In this document: positions 860 through 17,196 of the stretch, one piece after another
Layout of the letters: each line of letters begins with the position of its first letter
Numbering within the stretch: position 1 is the stretch's first letter
Source: a virus
Length of the DNA stretch: 17,196 bases
Direction: 5' to 3' (one strand)
UHGV virus genome: UHGV-0071544
The notes under the pieces: generated by a model
The model's input: the letters and a program-made list of their open reading frames with translations, nothing else
Database searches by the model: none
What the model was told of the DNA's origin: nothing
Translations under genes and position numbers: made by a program

Positions 860-1348
860 CTATGCTACATGTTTAATTTTCTCTACACGTTTTCGGTTTT
901 TAAACGCACTATCCAGAACCGGATAAATCATAAACAACGAGGCATTGAGGATTTCGTCAACTTCCCGGCGACAGGTTGCGAGCGATGGTTTTTGAATGCG
1001 CCCGCCGCCCCGGCATAACATCTTGCGAGGTCTTGCGACGCGATGATAGTAAGATGCAATGGCGTGCTTGGAAGAGCCATGAGCGTAGTAGCTTAGGAGG
1101 ATGCCAAAGGCTTTCTTGTCAATGTACATGACGGAATCGACGACCTGAGAAATCAACATTCCATCATCATCATTACACATTGGCCTTGTCATAACTCTTC
1201 CCGGCTCTACGCTCTCCATGAACTTCGCTATTACGCTGCTCATGCGCTTTTCCAGACGACCTGAATAAACCCATGCGCCCCACAGTTCAAGCCAGCCATT
1301 CAGCCACTCATGCTGTTCTTTGGTGAGGTTTAGTTCTCTTATGCTCAT
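860..1348 (-). CDS. Putative late-gene antiterminator Q (non-lambda Q family, possibly Q21/Q82-type)
   Basis: 162 aa, last gene of the minus-strand nin operon (ATG overlaps ninH stop as ATGA), about 540 bp upstream of the holin. Position matches lambda Q; sequence is not lambda Q. TTGACA hexamer directly after its stop (plus 848-853). Confidence 0.55.
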   Translation of the reverse strand: MSIRELNLTKEQHEWLNGWLELWGAWVYSGRLEKRMSSVIAKFMESVEPGRVMTRPMCNDDDGMLISQVVDSVMYIDKKAFGILLSYYAHGSSKHAIASYYHRVARPRKMLCRGGGRIQKPSLATCRREVDEILNASLFMIYPVLDSAFKNRKRVEKIKHVA

Positions 1349-1533
1349 CGTCTTCCCCTCTTGCCCTGTTTGACCATCAGGACGCCGTTAACTATTACGT
1401 GACGTTCGCCTTTGCTGTCTCGGTTGTACTTGAGCACCGTTCCTCTTGCGCAGGAAAGCATCCTTGCCACTTCGGTCTGATTGCCTCGTGTCTGGATAAG
1501 AAGCTCTGGTATCGTTTGAATTGTGGCGTTCAT
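1345..1533 (-). CDS. ninH: NinH-like small DNA-binding protein
   Basis: 62 aa; TIPELL...GNQTEVARML.C.RGTV.KY closely resembles lambda NinH as recalled; start overlaps rusA stop. Confidence 0.75.
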   Translation of the reverse strand: MNATIQTIPELLIQTRGNQTEVARMLSCARGTVLKYNRDSKGERHVIVNGVLMVKQGKRGRR

Positions 1534-1892
1534 ACGCTCTCCAGTTCGGTGATTTTTATTCCAAGCCTTCCGCCTGGTACTTTCACACCACGAATTACGC
1601 GAATGTCATCGAATTGCTCGTCGTCTTCCGCAAATCCGGCGTGGATAAGGGAGTCGAGTAAACCTTTCAGGATGTTGTCGAGGTCGCGGCGGCGGGAGTC
1701 TGGAACGTCTGCGATGACTTTGATGCGGAGTCGTGATTTGGTGAAAATGTCTAACTTGAGTTGGCGGATTATTTGCTGAACTTCTTTTCGGTATTTCTGA
1801 CCTTTATCGCTGATGTAGTATTGGTTTCCCCGTCTTCGCCAGTAGGTATTCACCGACGGCGGGTATGGAAGCACAAACTGATATTCGTTCAT
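1530..1892 (-). CDS. rusA: RusA-family Holliday junction resolvase
   Basis: 120 aa; motifs LPYPPSVNTYWRR, RRRDLDNILKGLLDSL, GGRLGIKITEL match E. coli RusA as recalled. Confidence 0.9.
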   Translation of the reverse strand: MNEYQFVLPYPPSVNTYWRRRGNQYYISDKGQKYRKEVQQIIRQLKLDIFTKSRLRIKVIADVPDSRRRDLDNILKGLLDSLIHAGFAEDDEQFDDIRVIRGVKVPGGRLGIKITELESV

Positions 1893-2179
1893 GACTTAAT
1901 CTTCCCCTCCTTCAGCAGTATCGCCTGCGTCCTGATTACGCCTTCGAGGTGGCAAAGTCTGGCGTCTTTGTTGTCGAGGTTATGGGTGCGTCGGTCGATT
2001 TCATCGTGACACGCGCTACAAGCCCATGCGCCGATCAGGTCGTCAGGCTTCATTCCCGCTCCGCAAATTCCAGCCATCCGGTAATGTGCCAGAACTGTAG
2101 TTTCAGGGTTGCCATTGCATACGCCGTAAATACGTACCTGGCATTCTCTGCCGCGTGCTTCTTTGCGTAGGTTAGCCAT
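1889..2179 (-). CDS. YbcO-like DUF1364 protein (putative metal-dependent nuclease)
   Basis: 96 aa; RGRECQVRIYGVCNGNPETTVLAH...CSACHDEIDRRTH resembles DLP12 YbcO as recalled; Cys/His cluster; TAATG overlap with the upstream gene. Confidence 0.75.
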   Translation of the reverse strand: MANLRKEARGRECQVRIYGVCNGNPETTVLAHYRMAGICGAGMKPDDLIGAWACSACHDEIDRRTHNLDNKDARLCHLEGVIRTQAILLKEGKIKS

Positions 2180-2901
2180 TAAGCAGCCTCCCCTGTTACT
2201 TTCAGCATTCCGTTATCGAGCAGCTTTCTGGTCAGCCACTGTTGACCACGCCCGGTGATTTTTGTGGTGAACGATATCTGTATTCCGTGATTTGTGTTGA
2301 CCGCTGTTTCCTTCACTGCGAAATAGCCGCGATCCATATATTCCTGCATTGGCACATTGCGCCGGGAACCTGAAGCAATAAGGATTTTGTGACCGCGCAT
2401 CCACGCAAACAGTTTGTTTGGACCAATTCCAACAACCTTTGCAAAGTTTCCAATCAAAATTCCGCTGGCCTCGCCAACGCGATCGGCAAACTCAACTTTA
2501 GGTGCGGCAATTGCGAGCTGGTTTTCCAGTTGCATTTTCTGCTCAGCAAGATCAGCAGCAAGGCGCAACGCTTCTGGTAGCGTTTTGGGGATATTAACCG
2601 CAGTTTCTTCAAGCTCTCGCCAACGGTCAACAAGACGAGCGGTGAATTCCGGCGACAACTGGGCAACAACGACAATACTGTCTCGCTTACCTTGTTCGCC
2701 TTCGAAGACGTAATGCTCGTACTGAACATTGAACCCTAAGTTATTGATTCTTTCGGAAACCTCAATTTGAGGAAGCCGGATAACACCATTTTTAGCCAGC
2801 GTTTCGATGGTACGTTTCACATTGTCATGACGCTTACCAACCAACTCAGCGATTTCAATGCTTGTCATTTTGATGGCATTGCCATTTATTAACTCATTCA
2901 T
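2179..2901 (-). CDS. Rha-family regulatory protein with C-terminal KilA-C/ANT antirepressor-like domain (Roi-like)
   Basis: 240 aa; N-terminal MTSIEIAELVGKRHDNVKRTIE is typical of phage Rha domains; C-terminal half resembles antirepressor KilAC domains; located in the nin region like HK022/HK97 roi. Confidence 0.65.
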   Translation of the reverse strand: MNELINGNAIKMTSIEIAELVGKRHDNVKRTIETLAKNGVIRLPQIEVSERINNLGFNVQYEHYVFEGEQGKRDSIVVVAQLSPEFTARLVDRWRELEETAVNIPKTLPEALRLAADLAEQKMQLENQLAIAAPKVEFADRVGEASGILIGNFAKVVGIGPNKLFAWMRGHKILIASGSRRNVPMQEYMDRGYFAVKETAVNTNHGIQISFTTKITGRGQQWLTRKLLDNGMLKVTGEAA

Positions 2902-3064
2902 CGTCTTCTTCCTCGTACATTGAGCTATTCGGATCGCTCATCAGTTCTGCGCAGCAGTGCTCACACACATGAACTTCCAGCACATGCAGCTTCTGACCGC
3001 AGTTAGCACACGTTAAAGCTCGCTCGACGCTTTCTTGTTCGTAACTTCGATTTTGGTCAATCAC
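2894..3064 (-). CDS. ninF: NinF-like protein
   Basis: [39 protein letters not shown] matches lambda NinF as recalled. Start placed at GTG 3064 (GTGA overlap with ninE stop); the ORF-track ATG at 3106 would overlap ninE by 45 nt. Confidence 0.7.
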
Positions 3065-3243
3065 CTTGTTTTCCTCGCACGATGTCTTAGCCACCGGATA
3101 TCCCACAGGTGAGCCGTGTAGTTGAAGGTTTTTACGTCAGATTCTTTTGGGATTGGCTTGCGTTTATTTCTGGAGCGCTTCGTTGGAAGGTATTTGCAGT
3201 TTTCGCAGATTATGTCGGTGATACTTCGTCGCTGTCGCCTCAT
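3061..3243 (-). CDS. ninE: NinE-like protein
   Basis: Internal ATG at 3243 gives 60 aa [51 protein letters not shown]..., lambda NinE-like; ATGA overlap with the methyltransferase stop. The longer track ORF is an upstream extension. Confidence 0.8.
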
Positions 3244-3767
3244 GCCGCCCTCCTGACGCCCTGCCCGATCGCCATCAATGCCGCTTTTGATACGGTAGTA
3301 AACATCCGTCGAGGACTGATGAACGGTCGCCAAATCAGCAGCATGGAACCTTTGCTGTTTCCCTTCTTCTCCAGCCCTGTCGATGGTTCGATAAAATTAA
3401 TCCGTCCATCAGTGATAATGCGAACTTCGTCGACACTCTCCAGAGCCTTGCTGAACCATCCGACTGACATATCCTCTGGCACAAGCATAACTACCGTCTG
3501 TCGCTGTTGTATGCACTGCTCAGCGGCTTTTTCCACCCACGGCCTGATATTGCTGTACGGTGGGTTATTCCAGATTGCACCGTGGCTTACCCACTCAGAA
3601 TTGAGCGCGTCGTCGGCCTCAGTTAGCCAGTGAGCACACAGAGCATTTTTGTCGCTCGCTGCCGAATCCAGCCAGAATCCAAACTCAATATCCAGTGCAT
3701 CAAAAAGCCAAAGCGGCGTTTGCCAGCAGTCCTTGTCGTGTGCTGGCGTATTTGATTGGATAGTCAT
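3240..3767 (-). CDS. DNA N6-adenine methyltransferase (phage Dam-like orphan MTase)
   Basis: ATG 3767 (ATGA overlap with ninB stop) gives 175 aa; catalytic NPPY motif (IWNNPPYSN) and a DCWQTP-type motif; small phage MTase architecture, no adjacent restriction gene. Confidence 0.8.
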
Positions 3768-4204
3768 GCAGCCCGATCTCCCCATCTCGCTTTCCACTCC
3801 AGAGCCAGTCGCGCTTCGTCCGACCACTTAACGCCACGCTCTGTACCGAATGCCTGTATAAGCTCTAATAGCTCCGCAAATTCGCCTACACGCATCCTGC
3901 TGGTTGACTGGCCTATTACCACAAAGCCATTCCCGGCAAGGTTAGGAACAACGTCCTGCTGCTTTAATGCTGCGGTAAACACACACTTCCAGCTTTCTGC
4001 ATCCAGCCAGCGACCATGCCATTCAACCTGACGCGAAACGTCACCAAGGCAAGCCCAAAGCTTCCGATTTTGGTCTAAGCTGCGGTTGCGCTCCTGAATG
4101 GTTACTACGATTGGTTTTGTTGGGTCTGGAAGGATTTGCTGTACTGCGTGAATAGCGTTTTGCTGATGTACTGGAGATCGAATTTCAAAGGTTAGTTTTT
4201 TCAT
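3764..4204 (-). CDS. ninB: NinB (Orf-family recombination mediator)
   Basis: 146 aa; essentially full-length match to lambda NinB as recalled (MKKLTFEIRSP.HQQNAIHAVQQILPDPTKPIVVTIQERNRSLDQNRKLWACLGDV...). Confidence 0.9.
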   Translation of the reverse strand: MKKLTFEIRSPVHQQNAIHAVQQILPDPTKPIVVTIQERNRSLDQNRKLWACLGDVSRQVEWHGRWLDAESWKCVFTAALKQQDVVPNLAGNGFVVIGQSTSRMRVGEFAELLELIQAFGTERGVKWSDEARLALEWKARWGDRAA

Positions 4205-4478: not shown

Positions 4479-5855
4479 TCATACGTCAGCCCCTTGTGCA
4501 TATCGTCTGCCACGTGCAGCGGGTGCATTTGATGTTGTGCAAATCTGTCTGGCTTCATCCTGGTCACATGCAACAAAGTGTCCGTTGCAGAACCGCTGGT
4601 AAACCGTACCAAGCGAGCCAAAACGGTTTTTCGTCACAATGATTTCAGCAAATGGTGCGGCGCTACTGTTCTCGTCATATACAGCTTCCCGATAGAGCAT
4701 GATGATTGAGTCTGCGTCCTGTTCAATGCTTCCTGAATCACGCAAATCTGCGTTTGTCGGGCGTTTGTTTGGTCGCTTCTCAACATCGCGTGAAAGCTGG
4801 CTTAGTGAGACAACTGGCGTTTTCAGGTCTTTCGCCATCGCCTTCAGGCTTCCGGAGATGTGAGCAATTGCGAGGTCGTTGCGGTCTGCTTTCGGCTTCT
4901 CAATCAGACCAAGATAATCCGCCATGATGAGTGACAGGTTTGGATTTTCCTGTTTGTGCCGTTCTGCGATTGAGCGAATTTCTTCGACCGATAACCGCGA
5001 GGCATCGACTACCCATACATCCAAATCTGCAAGCTGACTCATGCCGTTAGCAACACGCGCCCAGCCTTCGTCATCCATCGATGCAGGATTTCGCAGCACG
5101 CTAACCGACATCCTCCCGGCGTTGGCAATGCTTCGCTCTGCAATCTGCAATGCGCTCATTTCCATCGAGAAAATCAACACTCCGCGCCGGACGTCAGAAC
5201 CAGGAATAACGCGGCTTGCAACGCCTTCGGCAATCTTCAGCGCCAGTTCGGTTTTCCCCATACCCGGACGAGCAGCGATAATCACCAGGTCTTCCGCGTT
5301 CATCCCTCCGGTGATGGCGTCAAGTTCTTCGATTCCGGTTTTCAGGGTATCTGACTCTTCTCCGTTCCTCAGACGCTTGTCAAGCGTGTCAGTGTAGTCA
5401 GTGATGATTTCCCCTAAGCGTACCGGTTTAACCTCGTCACGGGGCTTTCTGATGGCTGAGAGACGCTTTACAAGCTCGTCCATCGCCTGACTCGATGTAT
5501 CGATGGTTCCGCTCTGAATTGGTTCACGCATTTCATCCATGATTTCCAGCACCAGACGGCGGTGATAGTTATCCGCGACCATTCCGGCATATCCCTTCAG
5601 GTTTGCGGCACTCGGGCAGTTTTTGCTGGTCATCAGGATTGACGTGAAATGCTCCTCTCCGCACGCCTCGGCAACCATCAGCGCATCGATTAGGTTTCTG
5701 TTTCTCGCCTGCTTGCGGATAACCTCGAAGGCTTTCCGGTAGAGCGGAATTGAAAACGCTTCCGGCTCCAGCGTTGCCAGAACGTCGCTGGCGGTTGGAG
5801 TTAATCCACCAATCAGCAGGCCACCGATAACGCTCGCTTCGATATCCTGTCTCAT
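4479..5855 (-). CDS. DnaB-type replicative DNA helicase
   Basis: 458 aa; Walker [10 protein letters not shown], DnaB-family N-terminal helical domain and C-terminal RecA-like domain ([22 protein letters not shown]); start overlaps O stop. Confidence 0.9.
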
Positions 5856-6673
5856 GCAATCCCCCTGTCTGCAAACTTCCCTTCCCGTACTCCCGTTAAC
5901 GAATCTTCCCTCAGCAGGTAATCAAAATCTGCCGTCCAGCCAGTGTCGTTGTCTCCGAAGTAAAACGGCTTGGCCTGATGTACAAACGCCCTGACATACG
6001 CTCTGAAACCGTCCACGTTTGGCGTTTTCAGTTGCGGGATGATTTTCTTCAGGCGGCGTTTGCGTTTCTCGTTGACCGCAACAGCGTGTGGCAGTCTGTC
6101 ACCGACTTCGGTGTTGTAGGCGTTCAGGAAGGATTCATAGTCGATTCGTTCTGCCTTGCGACGTTCAGGTTTAACCTGCCCATCGCCGCCCCCGTTAGGG
6201 GGTAAGGGGGTATTTGTATTTATTGTCTTTTGTATATTGTCTTTTGTGTTTAGCTGACTTGGCTTATACCCATTAGCCGACTTGGCTAATGTTTTATTAG
6301 CTGTTTTAGCTAATGTTAAGCTGTCCTGGCTAATCCACTGAGAAACCACCTTGTTCACTCCGATTTTCACGCCATCAGCAATGAGGAATTTACGCTCGAT
6401 AAGCTGGCGCTTGGCAGCGCAAACATGAGTGTGATGAATACCTGTCATGGCTGCTATCTGCGTGTTTGTGAGTCGATCCATCGGCTTATTGAATCCGTAT
6501 GTCTTGCGCATGATAGCGAGCATCACCTTCAACTGCCGGACGGTTAAATCAGCCATCAGCAGACTGTCGGTAATCTCGTTAGCAACGCGCATGAAACCAT
6601 CTTCGGTATCTGCCACGCGATGCTCCACGACCTCCAGTTGAGGCCTGTAATCAGCTAACTTAACGACGCCCAT
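5852..6673 (-). CDS. Replication initiator O-like protein (iteron-binding)
   Basis: 273 aa; [37 protein letters not shown] resembles the lambda O N-terminal domain; the iteron array lies inside the coding sequence as in lambda; C-terminal part differs. Confidence 0.85.
6210..6335. repeat. Phage replication origin: AT-rich segment plus four about 19-bp palindromic iterons
   Basis: AT-rich run 6210-6249 with direct repeat attgtcttttgt x2. Iterons ttagctgacttggcttata (6250-6268), ttagccgacttggctaatg (6273-6291), ttagctgttttagctaatg (6297-6315), ttaagctgtcctggctaat (6316-6334), each an inverted repeat TTAGC..GCTAA. Confidence 0.75.
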
Positions 6674-6821
6674 GTTTCACTCCTGCTTTGGCTAGTCTGT
6701 AAACACCAACAAGGCGCTCTGCGAACGCCCTGTTATTTGCTGCGGCTACCACTAATCCCTCAGGTGAATCAGGGTGTCGAATCTCTTCTTTTTCCTGGTA
6801 TTTCTTACGACGTTTTGTCAT
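6660..6821 (-). CDS. Small basic hypothetical ORF between cII and O (53 aa)
   Basis: ATG 6821 preceded by AGGAG 5 nt upstream; translation [53 protein letters not shown]; 3' end overlaps the O start by about 12 nt. Lambda has no gene here as I recall. Below the ORF-track cutoff. Confidence 0.4.
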   Translation of the reverse strand: MTKRRKKYQEKEEIRHPDSPEGLVVAAANNRAFAERLVGVYRLAKAGVKHGRR

Positions 6822-6855
6822 AATTACTCCTGTGGATTGATCCAGTCTTTCTACA

Positions 6856-7134
6856 TCAGGCCTCGAAGAATTCGCCGTTCTTCGGGGCTTTTTCTTTTGT
6901 CAGCATTCTGGCTACTTGCTTAGCCAGTTCCGCCAACTCCTCGTCTTCAACACCCCATTCAAGAACAGCCAGAAGCATTCCCATTTTGGGGATGAAGCTG
7001 TCTTTCCATCGCGAAATTTGCGATTCATTAATCCCTAACGCGTCGGCAACCTTTCGCTGACCACGTACAGCAATTCGATTCAGGATGTTGCTTGTAATTG
7101 CATTCGCTTTCTTGCGAGTACTTGTAAGTTGCAT
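6856..7134 (-). CDS. cII: CII-like transcriptional activator
   Basis: ATG 7134 with AAGGAAA SD gives 92 aa; core SQISRWK..FIPKMGMLLAVLEWGV as in lambda CII but termini diverge; track ORF start 7194 is an upstream extension. Confidence 0.85.
   Translation of the reverse strand: MQLTSTRKKANAITSNILNRIAVRGQRKVADALGINESQISRWKDSFIPKMGMLLAVLEWGVEDEELAELAKQVARMLTKEKAPKNGEFFEA
7088..7130 (+). promoter_or_regulatory. PRE-like promoter with CII site TTGC-N6-TTGC
   Basis: ttgcttgtaattgc at 7088-7101 on the plus strand, inside the 5' end of cII and oriented toward cro/cI, the arrangement of lambda PRE. Confidence 0.5.
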
Positions 7135-7213
7135 ATGTAAGTATTTCCTTAGATAACAATTGATTGAATGTATGCAAATAAATGCATACACCATAGGTGT
7201 GGTTTAATTTGAT

Positions 7214-7252: not shown

Positions 7253-7462
<210 letters not shown>

Positions 7463-7479
7463 TTAGTACATGCAACCAT

Positions 7480-7543
7480 TATCACCGCCAGAGGTAAAAT
7501 AGTCAACACGCACGGTGTTAGATATTTATCCCTTGCGGTGATA
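7480..7543. promoter_or_regulatory. Right operator oR3-oR2-oR1 with divergent pR and pRM
   Basis: tatcaccgccagaggta (7480-7496), caacacgcacggtgtta (7504-7520), tatcccttgcggtgata (7527-7543), the lambda oR half-site pattern; cI ATG at 7554 (leaderless pRM transcript). Confidence 0.9.
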
Positions 7544-7550
7544 GATTTAA

Positions 7551-8267
<717 letters not shown>

Positions 8268-8379
8268 TCGGCAAGGTGTTCTGGTCGGCGCATAGCTGAT
8301 AACAATTGAGCAAGAATCTTCATCGAATTAGGGGAATTTTCACTCCCCTCAGAACATAACATAGTAAATGGATTGAATT

Positions 8380-9219
8380 ATGAAGAATGGTTTTTATGCG
8401 ACTTACCGCAGCAAAAATAAAGGGAAAGATAAGCGCTCAATAAACCTGTCTGTTTTCCTTAATTCTCTGCTGGCTGATAATCATCACCTGCAGGTTGGCT
8501 CCAATTATTTGTATATTCATAAAATCGATGGAAAAACTTTTCTCTTTACCAAAACAAATGACAAGAGTCTGGTTCAGAAGATAAATCGCTCTAAAGCTTC
8601 AGTTGAAGATATTAAGAACAGCCTCGCAGATGACGAATCATTGGGATTCCCATCTTTTTTGTTTGTTGAAGGCGACACCATTGGTTTTGCCAGAACTGTT
8701 TTCGGGCCGACCACATCCGATCTGACAGATTTTTTAATCGGGAAAGGAATGTCATTAAGCAGTGGAGAGCGCGTTCAGATAGAGCCACTGATGAGGGGAA
8801 CCACCAAAGACGATGTTATGCATATGCATTTCATCGGCCGAACAACGGTGAAGGTAGAAGCCAAGCTACCTGTATTTGGCGATATATTAAAGGTCTTAGG
8901 GGCAACAGATATTGAAGGGGAGCTTTTTGACTCATTGGATATAGTCATTAAGCCAAAATTTAAAAGGGATATAAAAAAGGTTGCCAAGGATATTATTTTT
9001 AACCCGTCACCTCAATTTTCAGACATTAGCCTGCGGGCAAAAGATGAGGCCGGAGATATTTTAACAGAACATTATCTATCAGAAAAAGGCCATCTCTCAG
9101 CGCCTCTGAACAAGGTCACCAATGCTGAGATAGCTGAAGAGATGGCATATTGCTACGCAAGAATGAAAAGTGATATACTGGAATGTTTTAAAAGGCAGGT
9201 GGGCAAAGTTAAGGATTAA
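8380..9219 (+). CDS. rexA: RexA (exclusion system sensor/activator)
   Basis: 279 aa, same length and sequence as lambda RexA as recalled; immediately downstream of cI in the pRM operon. Confidence 0.9.
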   Translation: MKNGFYATYRSKNKGKDKRSINLSVFLNSLLADNHHLQVGSNYLYIHKIDGKTFLFTKTNDKSLVQKINRSKASVEDIKNSLADDESLGFPSFLFVEGDTIGFARTVFGPTTSDLTDFLIGKGMSLSSGERVQIEPLMRGTTKDDVMHMHFIGRTTVKVEAKLPVFGDILKVLGATDIEGELFDSLDIVIKPKFKRDIKKVAKDIIFNPSPQFSDISLRAKDEAGDILTEHYLSEKGHLSAPLNKVTNAEIAEEMAYCYARMKSDILECFKRQVGKVKD

Positions 9220-9234
9220 TTATCAGGAGTAATT

Positions 9235-9669
9235 ATGCGGAACAGAATCATGCCTGGTGTTTACATAGTAATAATTCCTTACGTTATCGTAAGCATTTGC
9301 TATCTCCTTTTCCGCCACTACATTCCTGGTGTTTCTTTTTCAGCTCATAGAGATGGTCTTGGGGCGACATTGTCATCATATGCAGGAACCATGATTGCAA
9401 TCCTGATTGCTGCCTTGACGTTTCTAATCGGAAGCAGAACGCGCCGACTGGCCAAGATTAGAGAGTATGGGTATATGACATCGGTAGTTATTGTCTATGC
9501 CCTTAGTTTTGTTGAGCTTGGAGCTTTGTTTTTCTGCGGGTTATTGCTTCTTTCCAGCATAAGCGGCTACATGATACCCACTATCGCCATCGGCATTGCC
9601 TCTGCATCGTTCATTCATATATGCATCCTTGTTTTCCAACTATATAATTTGACCAGAGAACAAGAATAA
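9235..9669 (+). CDS. rexB: RexB (membrane ion-channel component of Rex exclusion)
   Basis: 144 aa with four hydrophobic segments; lambda RexB as recalled. Confidence 0.9.
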   Translation: MRNRIMPGVYIVIIPYVIVSICYLLFRHYIPGVSFSAHRDGLGATLSSYAGTMIAILIAALTFLIGSRTRRLAKIREYGYMTSVVIVYALSFVELGALFFCGLLLLSSISGYMIPTIAIGIASASFIHICILVFQLYNLTREQE

Positions 9670-12249: not shown

Positions 12250-12350
12250 TGGCGACCGCGAAGGAATGCAGGTATGCCTTAATTTGTCCCGAGTCGAAGT
12301 ATTAAATCAGCGTTATTTCCTTGGGCCATGTCCATTCTGAGAACAAACAT

Positions 12351-12956
12351 ATGAGCAAAGAATTTTATGCAAGACTGGCAGCTATTCAGGAGAATCTGAA
12401 CGCGCCAAAGAATCAGTACAACTCATTCGGTAAATATAAATACAGAAGCTGCGAAGACATTCTTGAAGGCGTTAAGCCGTTACTGAATGGTCTGTTTTTA
12501 TCAATCAGCGATGAAGTTGTGTTGATTGGTGATCGGTATTACGTGAAAGCCACGGCAACTATCACCGATGGCGAAAACAGTCATACGGCAACCGCACTAG
12601 CACGAGAGGAAGAAAGCAAGAAAGGAATGGATTCTGCACAAGTTACTGGAGCTACAAGCTCTTATGCACGCAAGTATTGCCTCAATGGTTTGTTCGGCAT
12701 TGATGATGCGAAAGATGCAGATACAGACGAGCATAAACATCAGCAGAACGCAGCAGCAAAGCAATCAAAACCATCACCTACACCTGAACAGGTTCTAAAA
12801 GCATTCACTGACGCAGCATTGCAGAAAAACACCGTGGAAGAGCTTAAACAGGCGTTCGCCAAAGCGTGGAAGATGCTCGAAGGCACACCGGAGCAGCAAA
12901 AAGCGCAGGACGTTTACAACATCAGACGAGACGAATTAGAAGGGGCGGCCGCTTAA
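12351..12956 (+). CDS. erf: Erf-family single-strand annealing recombinase
   Basis: ATG 12351 gives 201 aa beginning MSKEFYARLAAIQENLNAPKNQYNSFGKYKYRSCEDILEGVKPLL, very similar to P22 Erf as recalled. The track ORF start at 12321 is a TTG upstream extension. Confidence 0.85.
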   Translation: MSKEFYARLAAIQENLNAPKNQYNSFGKYKYRSCEDILEGVKPLLNGLFLSISDEVVLIGDRYYVKATATITDGENSHTATALAREEESKKGMDSAQVTGATSSYARKYCLNGLFGIDDAKDADTDEHKHQQNAAAKQSKPSPTPEQVLKAFTDAALQKNTVEELKQAFAKAWKMLEGTPEQQKAQDVYNIRRDELEGAAA

Positions 12957-13339
12957 TGGCACATTCGATTACTGTAAGACTAAACAAGCCCGCAAGAGAG
13001 TTTCAGGCCGGGGAAAATATCGGATTCAACATCCGTGCTGGAGTTCAGTATTACGATCGCCAGACAGAAAAGAAAGAATGGACAAACTACAGCGCCGTTG
13101 TATTTGCCAAGCCGGGAGCGCAAGCGGATTACTACCGTAGTGTTCTTGTTGAAGGTGGCATTGTTGAAATTACCGGAGAAAACATCAGGGTTGATATTTA
13201 TCAGGGGCAAAATGGTCAATCAATCACTCTTGAATTACTGAATGCAAAGATTGGATTTGCAGCTTCAGGAAATGGCCCGCAGCAGCAAAGTAGTAACCAG
13301 CAGAACACTCCTGTATACGACGATTCCATCCCATTCTGA
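12956..13339 (+). CDS. Short SSB-like single-stranded DNA-binding protein
   Basis: ATG 12956 (TAATG overlap with erf stop) gives 127 aa; OB-fold-like N-terminal region, Gln/Gly-rich linker and acidic C-terminal tail ...VYDDSIPF resembling the SSB DDDIPF client-binding tip. Confidence 0.7.
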   Translation: MAHSITVRLNKPAREFQAGENIGFNIRAGVQYYDRQTEKKEWTNYSAVVFAKPGAQADYYRSVLVEGGIVEITGENIRVDIYQGQNGQSITLELLNAKIGFAASGNGPQQQSSNQQNTPVYDDSIPF

Positions 13340-13362
13340 TTTAGAAAAATAAGGATTTAATT

Positions 13363-13656
13363 ATGCCAGCGCCTTTGTATGGTGCGGATGACCCGCGCCG
13401 CTGTTCCGGCAATTCCGTATCGGAGGTGCTGGATAAATTCAGAAAAAACTACGATCGAATAATGTCTCTACCGCAGGAAACGAAAGAGGAAAAGGAATTT
13501 CGCCACTGTATATGGCTTGCAGAGAAAGAAGAACGCGAGCGAATTTACCAGACATCAATCCGACCATTCCGCAAAGCCACATATACCCACTTCCCTGAAA
13601 TTGACCCGCGCCTGCGTAATTACCGCTCACGCTATGGCGCTATCAGTAATGACTGA
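13363..13656 (+). CDS. Hypothetical 97-aa protein; possibly Abc2-type anti-RecBCD factor by position
   Basis: Good RBS AAGGA; follows the erf/ssb genes, where P22-type phages carry the abc genes; no motif I can verify. Confidence 0.45.
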
Positions 13657-13666
13657 GGAATTTACA

Positions 13667-13834
13667 ATGAGAGGACTTGCATACAATCCCGGCATTCTTC
13701 CGGCAGAAATGATTATTCGCCAACGCGTAAAGCCAATGCCATCGAGAGAGGAATTGCTTAAGAGAAATTCTTTTCCGTCAGTAAATCAAAACAAATATCT
13801 GAATGCGATGTGGCGCAAAGGAGGCAACCAGTGA
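13667..13834 (+). CDS. Small hypothetical ORF (55 aa)
   Basis: ATG 13667 with SD GAGGA 9 nt upstream; [55 protein letters not shown]; the longer track ORF 13517.. overlaps the preceding gene. Confidence 0.4.
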
Positions 13835-14055
13835 GCGGAAAAAGAATGACTAACAGAGAGCTTGTCGATGCCGCGATTAAGCTTGCTGGTGATTTTTATT
13901 CAATGATGGGGTACACGCATCGCCCAGGCTTCAAATATTGGGAGTCTCCTCACCCGCAAGAGCAACTGGTATTTCAAATGGCCTGCCGTGCTTTTGAGGT
14001 TATTCGCGGTTCTGATGTGATGGACGCCGTTGCCGACTTGGAGGATGAAGAGTGA
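13831..14055 (+). CDS. Hypothetical protein (74 aa from GTG 13831, or 69 aa from ATG 13846)
   Basis: SD AAAGGAGG 7 nt upstream of GTG 13831, GTGA overlap with the upstream stop; acidic C-terminus DLEDEE. Confidence 0.5.
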
Positions 14056-14462
14056 ACAAGATTGACTATCAGGCACTGCGTGAAGCGGCAGAGAAAGCCG
14101 GTGAAGATAAGTGGCAGGCTAAAAAAATAAATGGTGATTTTTTCGTTATTCGTCACGGTAGTTATACAAGACAGCATGGCTACACATTGTATCAACCCAT
14201 TGCGGAGATTGATTGTAAGCCAGTCCGGGATTTTGTTGCCAAGGCTAATCCGGCTACCGTGCTGGAATTACTGGATGAACTGGAAGCAGCAAAAAAGCGC
14301 ATTGCAGAACTGGAAGCGCGGGAAATACTGCTCCCGGAACGTAGCAGCATGCTTCATCGAACAGATTTTCACGATGATTACCAAACGGTAATGGCATACA
14401 AAGTTTCTGAAGTCATCGCTGCAATCCGCGCCGCAGGCATTCGCATCAAAGGAGGTGAGTAA
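14052..14462 (+). CDS. Hypothetical coiled-coil protein (136 aa), Ead/Ea22-region type
   Basis: GTG start after SD GGAGGA, overlapping the upstream stop; heptad-like segment LELLDELEAAKKRIAELEAREILL. Confidence 0.55.
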   Translation: MNKIDYQALREAAEKAGEDKWQAKKINGDFFVIRHGSYTRQHGYTLYQPIAEIDCKPVRDFVAKANPATVLELLDELEAAKKRIAELEAREILLPERSSMLHRTDFHDDYQTVMAYKVSEVIAAIRAAGIRIKGGE

Positions 14463-14638
14463 TGCGTGTGGCATGTATCGGCTTGTTACCGTACCCGACT
14501 CGTTTTTGGGCTTCTGCGCTAATTGCAAAGCCGTATGTCCTGATGGCTGACAACATCATCCCGGCACCAAAGCGCCGCCATACCGGTATTGCAGCGGCAC
14601 GACGAGCAGCAAAGAGACGCAGGAGAGCAAAGCGATGA
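14462..14638 (+). CDS. Small ORF (58 aa) with Arg-rich C-terminus
   Basis: ATG 14462 after SD AGGAGGTGAG, TAATG overlap upstream and ATGA overlap downstream; MRVACIGLLPYPTRFWASALIAKPYVLMADNIIPAPKRRHTGIAAARRAAKRRRRAKR. Below the ORF-track cutoff. Confidence 0.35.
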   Translation: MRVACIGLLPYPTRFWASALIAKPYVLMADNIIPAPKRRHTGIAAARRAAKRRRRAKR

Positions 14639-14823
14639 AAAACCGTAAAGCAAAGATTCTGTTAGTTCGTAGAAACGCTCCTGGCGTCTGGCAGTGGGTG
14701 AGACTCAGCAACCGACGGATGGGGTTGATGAAATATTACGGGATGATGGATTGTGGTTTTTGCAAAAAGCCCAGCGCGGCGCAAAACCGCTGGAAAAACA
14801 ACTTGCGCACTAAAGGAGAGTGA
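14635..14823 (+). CDS. Hypothetical small protein (62 aa)
   Basis: Translationally coupled to neighbours; Cys pair CGFC; no recognisable family. Confidence 0.4.
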   Translation: MKNRKAKILLVRRNAPGVWQWVRLSNRRMGLMKYYGMMDCGFCKKPSAAQNRWKNNLRTKGE

Positions 14824-14824
14824 T

Positions 14825-15373
14825 ATGACCACTATAACCGATAAGAAACAGTATCCAGGCGAGCAATATCTTAATGAGCTGATCACCAACATAGAGTTTG
14901 CTGCAAGGGCACCAGTTGAAGTCGTGAGAGCAATGGCAGCAGAGCTACAGAAGCGGCGCGAAGCTGATAGTGCCGAACCTGCAAGTAATCATGAAGAGTT
15001 GCCGCTTGATTATCTCCAAGGTCAAAAAGATGGTCTTGAATGGGCTGCGCAGCTTGCAGAAGCAAATCACCCACAAACTGGCGACTGGCTTTACGATGAC
15101 CCGCTGGAGCTGGCTAAAGCTATCAGAAAAGGTCCTGACATGCCCGAATTCGATGGACCAACTCCGGTAACTCCGGATGGTTGGATAAGCTGTAGTGAGC
15201 GAATGCCCGCTCAAGATGATTGGATTTTAATTTATTCAAAGCACGGCGAGTATATGGCAGGACAGGTACAAGAGGAATACGTGGAGTTGAGCGACGGCAC
15301 TTTATCGTGGTTAGGGAACGCCTTGTTCTGGATGCCTCTACCAGAACCGCCGCAGGAGGTTAACCGTGGCTAA
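14825..15373 (+). CDS. Ea22-like protein (182 aa)
   Basis: ATG 14825 after SD AAAGGAGAG; same length and relative position as lambda ea22; C-terminal ...LFWMPLPEPP motif typical of a lambdoid early-protein family. Confidence 0.65.
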   Translation: MTTITDKKQYPGEQYLNELITNIEFAARAPVEVVRAMAAELQKRREADSAEPASNHEELPLDYLQGQKDGLEWAAQLAEANHPQTGDWLYDDPLELAKAIRKGPDMPEFDGPTPVTPDGWISCSERMPAQDDWILIYSKHGEYMAGQVQEEYVELSDGTLSWLGNALFWMPLPEPPQEVNRG

Positions 15374-15650
15374 CCTTCAACTGGCAGTTAACGGTGAATA
15401 TTTCGACCAGATGAAGTCAGGCGAGAAAACGGAAGAGTATCGCCTGTGTAATGACTACTGGAATAAGCGAATTATGTTCCGGGAGTATGACCGCCTGATT
15501 ATCACAAAGGGATATCCGAAGCGCGACGATTCCAGCCGCAGAATTGATGTTCCGTATGACGGATATGAAATCAAGACAATCACACATCCGCACTTCGGCG
15601 ATAAACCGGTAAAGGTATACGCGATAAAGGTGAATATCAGCAATGAATAA
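15366..15650 (+). CDS. Ea8.5-like small protein
   Basis: GTG start after SD AGGAGG; 94 aa, size and position equivalent to lambda ea8.5; GEKTEEYR-type motif. Confidence 0.55.
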   Translation: MANLQLAVNGEYFDQMKSGEKTEEYRLCNDYWNKRIMFREYDRLIITKGYPKRDDSSRRIDVPYDGYEIKTITHPHFGDKPVKVYAIKVNISNE

Positions 15651-15722
15651 CAATCCTCGCACTCGCGGGGATTTCTTTTATCTGAACTCGCTACGGCGGG
15701 TTTTGTTTTATGGAGATGATAA

Positions 15723-15890
15723 ATGCACTTCCGAGTCACAGGAGAATGGAATGGAGAGCCATTCAACAGAGTTATCGAAGCAGAGGACATCAACGACTGC
15801 TATGCCCACTGGATGCTGTGGGCGCAGATAGCACATGCAGACGTAACCAATATTCGAATTGAAGAACTGAAAGAACACCAAACCGCCTGA
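15723..15890 (+). CDS. Small ORF upstream of xis (55 aa), lambda orf55-equivalent
   Basis: MHFRVTGEWNGEPFNRVIEAEDINDCYAHWMLWAQIAHADVTNIRIEELKEHQTA; same length and position as the small lambda ORF next to xis; a clean terminator follows. Below the ORF-track cutoff; the track ORFs 15643..15831 and 15708..16061 overlap it in other frames. Confidence 0.5.
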   Translation: MHFRVTGEWNGEPFNRVIEAEDINDCYAHWMLWAQIAHADVTNIRIEELKEHQTA

Positions 15891-15906
15891 TGGCGGTTTT
15901 TTCTTG
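15881..15906 (+). terminator. Intrinsic terminator just upstream of pI and xis
   Basis: AACCGCC-tgat-GGCGGTT followed by TTTTCTTG. Confidence 0.6.
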
Positions 15907-15945
15907 CGTGTAATTGCGGAGACTTTGCGATGTACTTGACACTTC
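15904..15945 (+). promoter_or_regulatory. pI promoter with CII site TTGC-N6-TTGC
   Basis: ttgcgtgtaattgc at 15904-15917 overlapping the xis 5' end, as in lambda pI. Confidence 0.6.
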
Positions 15946-16148
15946 AGGAGTGGAACGCACGCCAGCGACGTCCAAGAAGCCTTGAAACAGTTCGTCGATG
16001 GGTGCGCGAATGCAGGATATTCCCTCCTCCGGTTAAGGATGGAAGAGAGTATCTGTTCCACGAATCAGCGGTAAAGGTTGACTTAAATCGACCAGTAACA
16101 GGTAGCCTTTTGAAGAGGATCAGAAATGGGAAGAAGGCGAAGTCATGA
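15930..16148 (+). CDS. xis: Excisionase Xis
   Basis: 72 aa MYLTLQEWNARQRRPRSLETVRRWVRECRIFPPPVKDGREYLFHESAVKVDLNRPVTGSLLKRIRNGKKAKS, lambda Xis as recalled; 23-nt overlap with int. Confidence 0.95.
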   Translation: MYLTLQEWNARQRRPRSLETVRRWVRECRIFPPPVKDGREYLFHESAVKVDLNRPVTGSLLKRIRNGKKAKS

Positions 16149-17196
16149 GCGCCGGGATTTACCACCTAACCTTTATATAAGAAACAATGGATATTACTGC
16201 TACAGGGACCCAAGGACGGGTAAAGAGTTTGGATTGGGCCGAGACAGGCGAATCGCAATCACTGAAGCTATACAGGCCAACATTGAGTTATTTTCAGGAC
16301 ACAAACACAAGCCTCTGACAGCGAGAATCAACAGTGATAATTCTGTTACGTTACATTCATGGCTTGATCGCTACGAAAAAATCCTCGCCAGCAGAGGAAT
16401 CAAGCAGAAGACACTCATAAATTACATGAGCAAAATTAAAGCAATAAGGAGGGGTCTGCCTGATGCTCCACTTGAAGACATCACCACAAAAGAAATTGCG
16501 GCAATGCTCAATGGATACATAGACGAGGGCAAGGCGGCGTCAGCCAAGTTAATCAGATCAACACTGAGCGATGCATTCCGAGAGGCAATAGCTGAAGGCC
16601 ATATAACAACAAACCCGGTCGCTGCCACTCGCGCAGCAAAATCAGAGGTAAGGAGATCAAGACTTACAGCTGACGAATACCTGAAAATTTATCAAGCAGC
16701 AGAATCATCACCATGTTGGCTCAGACTTGCAATGGAACTGGCTGTTGTTACCGGGCAACGAGTTGGTGATTTATGCGAAATGAAGTGGTCTGATATCGTA
16801 GATGGATATCTTTATGTCGAGCAAAGCAAAACAGGCGTAAAAATTGCCATCCCAACAACATTGCATGTTGATGCTCTCGGGATATCAATGAAGGAAACAC
16901 TTGATAAATGCAAAGAGATTCTTGGCGGAGAAACCATAATTGCATCTACTCGTCGTGAACCGCTTTCATCCGGCACAGTATCAAGGTATTTTATGCGCGC
17001 ACGAAAAGCATCAGGTCTTTCCTTCGAAGGGGATCCGCCTACCTTTCACGAGTTGCGCAGTTTGTCTGCAAGACTCTATGAGAAGCAGATAAGCGATAAG
17101 TTTGCTCAACATCTTCTCGGGCATAAGTCGGACACCATGGCATCACAGTATCGTGATGACAGAGGCAGGGAGTGGGACAAAATTGAAATCAAATAA
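16126..17196 (+). CDS. int: Tyrosine integrase Int (lambda type)
   Basis: 356 aa; matches lambda Int as recalled, including the catalytic region HELRSLSARLY ... HLLGHKSDTMASQYRDDRG with the C-terminal nucleophilic Tyr; window ends at its stop codon. Confidence 0.97.
   Translation: MGRRRSHERRDLPPNLYIRNNGYYCYRDPRTGKEFGLGRDRRIAITEAIQANIELFSGHKHKPLTARINSDNSVTLHSWLDRYEKILASRGIKQKTLINYMSKIKAIRRGLPDAPLEDITTKEIAAMLNGYIDEGKAASAKLIRSTLSDAFREAIAEGHITTNPVAATRAAKSEVRRSRLTADEYLKIYQAAESSPCWLRLAMELAVVTGQRVGDLCEMKWSDIVDGYLYVEQSKTGVKIAIPTTLHVDALGISMKETLDKCKEILGGETIIASTRREPLSSGTVSRYFMRARKASGLSFEGDPPTFHELRSLSARLYEKQISDKFAQHLLGHKSDTMASQYRDDRGREWDKIEIK

Follow-up and report, generated by a model that had tools for sequence, protein, structure and literature searches.

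A probable replication origin of the HK97 type within the O-like initiator gene of a lambdoid prophage

Four palindromic repeats lie in the middle of an O-like replication gene in a phage-derived stretch of 17,196 nucleotides (the window, by which we mean the whole stretch of DNA that was analysed), and the question raised by this locus is whether repeats within a translated sequence can be taken for a replication origin. We consider it very probable that they form the theta-replication origin of a lambdoid replication module of the HK97/ST104 type, built like ori-lambda. This reading is carried by the anatomy of the site, its homology to the origins of P22 and lambda, the selection on the iteron arms and the co-variation of the iterons with the N-terminal domain of the initiator, all of which are shown by the sequence analysis. 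Such an origin is of an already known kind and lies in a known gene, very common among enterobacterial prophages, as an HK97-type member of the lambda/P22 origin family. Its parts and the two genes concerned are the following:

5852-6673, minus strand: gene of the O-like replication initiator, 273 amino acids (Pfam Phage_rep_O), containing the presumed origin
6335-6619, minus strand: region of the N-terminal DNA-binding domain (aa 19-113; Pfam Phage_rep_O)
6317-6333: iteron 1 in gene order, an outer copy; the plus strand reads TAAGCTGTCCTGGCTAA
6297-6313: iteron 2, a central copy with perfect 6-bp dyad arms; the plus strand reads TTAGCTGTTTTAGCTAA
6273-6289: iteron 3, a central copy whose dyad arms are perfect over 7 bp if the flanking A/T is counted; the plus strand reads TTAGCCGACTTGGCTAA
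6250-6266: iteron 4, an outer copy adjoining the AT-rich tract; the plus strand reads TTAGCTGACTTGGCTTA
6211-6249: AT-rich tract, 39 bp, 20% GC, with a direct repeat of 14-bp period; presumed DNA-unwinding element
6189-6210: C5/G5 tract containing a short inverted repeat, beyond the AT-rich tract as seen from the iterons; the plus strand reads CCCCC-GTTA-GGGGG-TAA-GGGGG
5852-6188, minus strand: region of the initiator C-terminal domain, presumed helicase contact, 60% identical to the C-terminal part of P22 gp18
4479-5855, minus strand: DnaB-type replicative helicase, 458 amino acids, the next gene downstream of O, overlapping the O stop codon by 4 nt

The preliminary description of this DNA had listed four evenly spaced 19-bp palindromic repeats. 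The repeats themselves are present between 6250 and 6333 and belong to one family of imperfect palindromes, TTAGCY-N5-RGCTAA (n = 4), with a core of 17 bp that comes to 19 bp only with the flanking A/T; the consensus given for them had 18 letters as written, although it was called a 19-bp sequence. Their even spacing holds only approximately, the distances from start to start being 23, 24 and 20 bp along the plus strand, or 20/24/23 bp in the direction of the gene. In the two central copies the dyad arms are perfect (ATTAGCC/GGCTAAT and TTAGCT/AGCTAA), while the two outer ones match the dyad at four of the six arm positions. When both strands of the 17.2-kb window were searched for the pattern TTAGCYNNNYTRGCTAA, allowing at most two mismatches, eight matches were found against an expectation of 0.60, seven of them inside the four iterons, and a count of eight was reached in none of 200 shuffles. 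The dyads lie between the regions of the N- and C-terminal domains at distances of about two helical turns, as in an origin of the ori-lambda type. A scan of the whole window against Rfam at gathering thresholds gave no family, which leaves a reading of the repeats as structured RNA unsupported.

Followed in the direction of the gene, the N-terminal domain, the four iterons, the AT-rich tract, the short inverted repeat and the C-terminal domain succeed one another. The likeness to the lambda origin embedded in its initiator gene, which had been proposed from the layout, is supported by this order, which is the same, and by the spacing, which equals that of the gpO sites of 434 and of the repeats in the P22 rep_origin. 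Indeed, the 20/24/23 spacing is common to this gene, P22, a Yersinia phage and the annotated gpO sites of 434 (a lambda-type ori), and in all four the last iteron is directly followed by ACACAAAAGA. This sequence begins the AT-rich tract in the gene direction, and it does so likewise in all relatives examined.

The AT-rich stretch with its own direct repeat and the neighbouring G-rich tract were also found where they had been described. The two copies of the direct repeat (6219-6234 and 6233-6248) have a period of 14 and are 88% identical, the GC content over 6200-6259 falls to 27-32% as compared with 50-55% in the flanks, and the least stable 40-mer of the O gene by nearest-neighbour energy is 6211-6250 (20% GC; z = 2.9 relative to the whole window). 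The tract adjoins the last iteron on its downstream side in the gene direction, which is the arrangement of an ori-lambda-type origin. It might be argued that several other 40-mers of the window are equally AT-rich, so that the origin could lie elsewhere in the prophage and the iterons, while binding the initiator, would mainly serve titration, autoregulation or handcuffing, or act as hairpin triggers for host defence sensors. Plasmid-borne lambda iterons can indeed titrate O and inhibit phage replication (PMC3349717), and a defence protein that binds the lambda ori iterons is the subject of a 2026 preprint (10.64898/2026.07.10.737580). We nevertheless regard such an explanation as very improbable. 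The other AT-rich segments are found in the rexAB/immunity region without adjoining repeats, whereas the full lambda layout, iterons and then the AT-rich tract, is kept here and in every relative examined; moreover, the lambda sites serve both as origin and as titration sites, and titration would therefore be an added role rather than an alternative to the origin.

Beyond the AT-rich tract, the C/G tract is conserved in P22, ST415_1NRH, TL-2011a and in Klebsiella and Cronobacter phages, while in lambda a palindrome stands in its place. We considered whether the C/G tract goes with the type of helicase or loader, but rejected this since phiES15 and KO-TP1, with annotated P-type partners, also have the C/G tract and since SEN34 has a lambda-like palindrome.

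The initiator matches Phage_rep_O (PF04492) over amino acids 19-113 with E = 5.8e-33, covering positions 1-95 of the 95 in the profile. Membership of this Pfam family suggests that the N-terminal domain could be a winged-helix; when the initiator was compared by sequence with the PDB, no solved structure matched it at E values up to 1. The C-terminal region is 97-99% identical to its counterparts in ST415_1NRH and TL-2011a. For the product of the next gene, Pfam gives the DnaB N- and C-terminal domains (E = 1.3e-77 for DnaB_C), and BLASTP aligns it with P22 gp12 at 90% identity along all of its 458 amino acids, in agreement with the earlier view that the initiator is paired with a DnaB-type helicase in place of a lambda P-type loader.

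Upstream of O, cII (6856-7194) and cro (7253-7453) lie on the minus strand, and cI (7554-8267) is on the plus strand, divergent from cro. The 28-nt motif for the pO promoter and the 5′ end of oop, as quoted in PMC3349717, is found at 6819-6846, on the minus strand as written, with no mismatch. The order of cro, cII, O and the helicase gene, the divergent cI and the pO motif place the origin in the early right operon, as in lambda. A GC-rich hairpin followed by a T-run is seen on the plus strand at about 6860-6897. Together with the pO/oop motif it makes likely an oop-like antisense RNA that would be transcribed on the plus strand towards about position 6900 and overlap the end of cII; no Rfam family matched it. 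Between cII and O, and overlapping the start of O, there is an ORF of 53 codons (6660-6821, minus strand), the counterpart of HK97 gp53 and P22 orf48, which is absent from lambda and has no Pfam match.

The immunity region (7253-9669) is of the lambda type, with cI (237 aa), rexA and rexB on the plus strand and, on the minus strand, a Cro of the lambda family. The P22 18-12 segment can substitute for O-P in viable lambda hybrids and works in them as a self-contained replication module; these hybrids are insensitive to inhibition directed at ori-lambda (PMC3349717). The combination of lambda-type immunity with an HK97/P22-type replication module is the natural counterpart of such a laboratory lambda(18,12)P22 hybrid. 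Elsewhere the window carries the usual lambdoid cargo, with genes for a Q antiterminator (860-1348), an Ant/Rha-type regulator (2179-2901), a Dam-family methyltransferase (3240-3827) and NinB (3764-4204) within 860-4204, and for an Erf recombinase (12321-12956) and a lambda-type integrase (16126-17196) within 12321-17196.

Because the iterons are translated, their conservation was examined in five O genes of the same iteron family and spacing, one being that of this window (E. coli) and the others coming from phages of Yersinia, Providencia, Klebsiella and Salmonella. The mean pairwise identities were as follows:

Iteron arms: 0.91
Iteron centres: 0.71
Spacers between iterons: 0.75
Third codon positions of the iteron arms: 0.86
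Third codon positions of the N-terminal domain of the same genes: 0.47

The values for the arms were reached in none of 20,000 random draws of columns from the N-terminal domain. Conservation in related phages had been put forward as a check on the repeats, and they are indeed kept more strongly than the surrounding coding sequence. Judged by these alignments, selection acts on the iteron arms as DNA. Part of the conservation of the iteron block could stem from recent horizontal exchange of the segment, a reading against which the contrast with the N-terminal domains of the same genes speaks. The same comparison bears on the possibility that the repeats are a mere DNA shadow of a repetitive, low-complexity linker peptide and have no cis-acting role. 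The region is translated, and the peptide that links the Pfam domain to the C-terminal part is indeed repetitive. However, a peptide repeat has no need of dyad symmetry, the third positions of the arms are far better conserved than those of the neighbouring domain, and lambda, P22 and this gene keep the same 20/24/23 spacing although their peptides differ; the equivalent region of P22 is, in addition, annotated as an origin. On the third-position conservation and the dyad symmetry in particular we have rejected a coding artefact, and a role confined to the peptide seems to us highly improbable.

The O gene shares 99.0% nucleotide identity with that of HK97 (gp54) and 98.7-99.4% with those of HZ41, HK446, HK544, Nil2, Stx phages 1717 and 2851 and P22-like Salmonella phages. 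Matching sequences occur in 183 phage records, and 715 of the 5,426 complete E. coli genomes contain the gene. Taken over its whole length, the window is a mosaic resembling HK97, 61% of it being covered at 96.7% identity. That the module might be a decayed remnant, a former origin no longer used in a defective prophage, is very unlikely indeed: the window does appear to be a chromosomal prophage (100% matches to the O gene are found in E. coli chromosomes), and many of these are defective, but the O protein has a 100% identical counterpart in the Stx2c-converting phage Stx2_EH1904 and one of 99.6% identity in Escherichia phage HZ41, HK97 shares the 106-bp iteron block at 100% identity, the helicase ORF has its full length, and the ORFs of cI, cro, cII, Q and int are likewise intact.

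If the locus is an origin, the events at it can be pictured from the biochemistry of lambda and P22, from which we infer binding, unwinding and helicase recruitment. Early transcription from pR (leftward in the window, on the minus strand) through cro, cII, the 53-codon ORF, O and the helicase gene would yield the O-like initiator. Dimers of its N-terminal domain would bind the four dyad iterons and, because these are about two helical turns apart, could assemble into an O-some-like complex, the stress from which would melt the adjoining AT-rich tract. Through its C-terminal domain the initiator would then recruit the phage DnaB-type helicase directly, in place of the P-mediated capture of host DnaB in lambda, and the host primase and polymerase would come next. 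Indirect support for the binding of the initiator to the iterons, and for initiator-dependent replication of the segment, comes from the conservation of the arms at the DNA level and from the way in which N-terminal domain and iteron vary together.

It had been proposed that repeats of non-lambda sequence imply a different specificity of the initiator. The comparison of 12 O genes favours this proposal: the iteron differs from that of lambda (TCCCTC..GAGGGA) and from that of P22 (TTTACC..GGTAAA), and the iteron family follows the N-terminal and not the C-terminal domain. An N-terminal segment with IHHTHVC is common to five O proteins with TTAGCY..RGCTAA iterons, while the P22, Klebsiella and lambda-type proteins differ in it. 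The iteron arms and the residues found after a conserved TG in the protein alignment are paired in this way:

TTAGCY..RGCTAA, in the window and in Yersinia, Providencia, Klebsiella RCIP0114 and Cronobacter phiES15: IHHTHVC (IHHTHIC in phiES15)
TTTACC..GGTAAA, in P22 and ST415_1NRH: MAPTKCS
TTACCC..GGGTAA-like, in two Klebsiella phages: ILPHKCS
TCCCTC..GAGGGA, in 434: LPVKRCN, the conserved TG being TK in 434

Salmonella MS2 LVA, which was left out of this segment alignment, has the same TTAGCY..RGCTAA iterons and the same segment in the five-gene comparison. The C-terminal domains sort independently of the iteron class, and their own classes partly follow the helicase or loader partner:

The window, P22, ST415_1NRH, TL-2011a and Providencia: one class, the partner being a P22 gp12-like helicase
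434 and SEN34: one class, the partner being lambda P
phiES15, KO-TP1 and ST11-VIM1phi8.2: one class
Yersinia and RCIP0114: each alone in its class

In the O gene of phiES15 (nt 293-413) there are five TTAGCC..GGCTAA iterons and not four, spaced 20/24/36/24, and the partner is annotated as lambda P-type, so that in this phage the same specificity class goes together with another loader and another number of iterons.

Two of the phages are mosaics within the O gene. ST415_1NRH combines an N-terminal domain and iterons of the P22 type with a C-terminal part 97% identical to that of the window, and TL-2011a an unrelated N-terminal part, with 12-bp CCGCACATGA repeats, with a C-terminal part that is 99% identical; in both, the switch point is the conserved AT-rich/C-tract segment. 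The O gene of TL-2011a (JQ011316, 1858-2012) has at least seven of these direct repeats, in two clusters, which replace the dyad iterons and suggest that a different kind of initiator-binding array may be set on the same scaffold. The DnaB-type helicase of this Stx2a phage (2387-4387) is 95-100% identical to that of the window and has an insertion of about 339 amino acids directly after the GMGK of the Walker A motif. The insertion gives LAGLIDADG/homing-endonuclease hits in Pfam and is probably an intein in the P-loop.

The chances seem to us about even that O-type initiators follow a readable code, in which the segment after TG would specify the iteron arm, and the spacing, the AT-rich tract beginning with ACACAAAAGA and the C/G tract would constitute a fixed scaffold and a recombination hinge. 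Under such a code, a specificity module (N-terminal domain and iterons) would be shuffled against a helicase-recruitment module (C-terminal domain with DnaB, P or an AAA ATPase), and the mosaics ST415_1NRH and TL-2011a fit this reading. Modular exchange in lambdoid O genes is already discussed in the field, and a recognition code, if true, would therefore be a refinement.

The value of the locus as a discovery is small, as a textbook arrangement was read correctly in a gene present in the databases hundreds of times. Its use lies rather in the iteron class, which predicts the lambdoid phages and prophages that would cross-activate, or titrate, each other's initiators; many Stx-converting phages carry exactly this origin and so fall under this prediction. 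In the literature searched we found no paper that describes the HK97-type iterons specifically, and no binding, footprinting or plasmid replication assay on them; in none of the 66 phage records holding the iteron block is a rep_origin annotated there. This gap could be filled by an annotation rule that asks for four dyads spaced 20/24/23, followed by ACACAAAAGA.

Among known systems, the iteron origins of plasmids of the Rep/pi/RepA type share with the present locus the logic of repeated initiator sites beside an AT-rich unwinding element. As a rule, however, plasmid iterons are direct repeats to which monomers bind, and they are situated outside the rep gene, whereas the iterons here are palindromes within the coding sequence of the initiator. 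Lambdoid origins have their iterons and AT-rich tract in the middle of O (PMC7466680). Lambda and 434 share with the gene described here the Pfam N-terminal domain (43% identical), the position of the origin in mid-gene, four dyad iterons spaced 20/24/23, the first nucleotides of the AT-rich tract and an inverted repeat beyond this tract. They differ in the iteron itself (TCCCTC-N5/6-GAGGGA) and in the partner, which is the P loader capturing host DnaB and not a phage-encoded helicase, and no meaningful similarity was found between the C-terminal parts of the initiator here and that of lambda/434.

P22 is closer, and in this phage the arrangement has been on record for a long time. Its gene 18 has four repeats of about 20 bp that are unlike those of lambda, and gp12 is a helicase of the DnaB type (PMC8022706). 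The annotated P22 rep_origin (BK000583, 32840-32984), in the middle of gene 18, aligns with the region described here, with four dyad repeats at the same position in the gene and an AT-rich and C-tract segment that is 100% identical. Genes 18 and 12 were reportedly first described by Backhaus and Petri in 1984, and the gp12 helicase is said to have been first described by Wickner in the same year. The initiators are 51% identical overall, 43% in the N-terminal and 60% in the C-terminal part, and with its phage-encoded DnaB-family helicase and an initiator C-terminal domain of the P22 gp18 type the module belongs with those of P22 and HK97. In contrast, the iterons are TTTACC-N5-GGTAAA in P22 and TTAGCC-N5-GGCTAA here, and the N-terminal TGIHHTHVC segment differs as well. 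Going by these sequences, the specificity class is that of HK97/ST104 and not that of P22, and since both the iterons and the N-terminal domain differ, P22 and HK97-type origins should not cross-activate.

The closest counterpart is the replication module of O (gp54) and P (gp55) in HK97, a phage reportedly first described by Juhala et al. in 2000. This module is of essentially the same sequence and is also found in HK446, HK544, Nil2, Stx 1717, Stx 2851, ST104 and SPN9CC. HK97 likewise has the 53-codon ORF upstream and the DnaB-type helicase gene downstream, and its origin shows no differences from the one described here. What differs is the surrounding prophage, which is another mosaic and carries the lambda-type immunity of cI-rexA-rexB instead of that of HK97.
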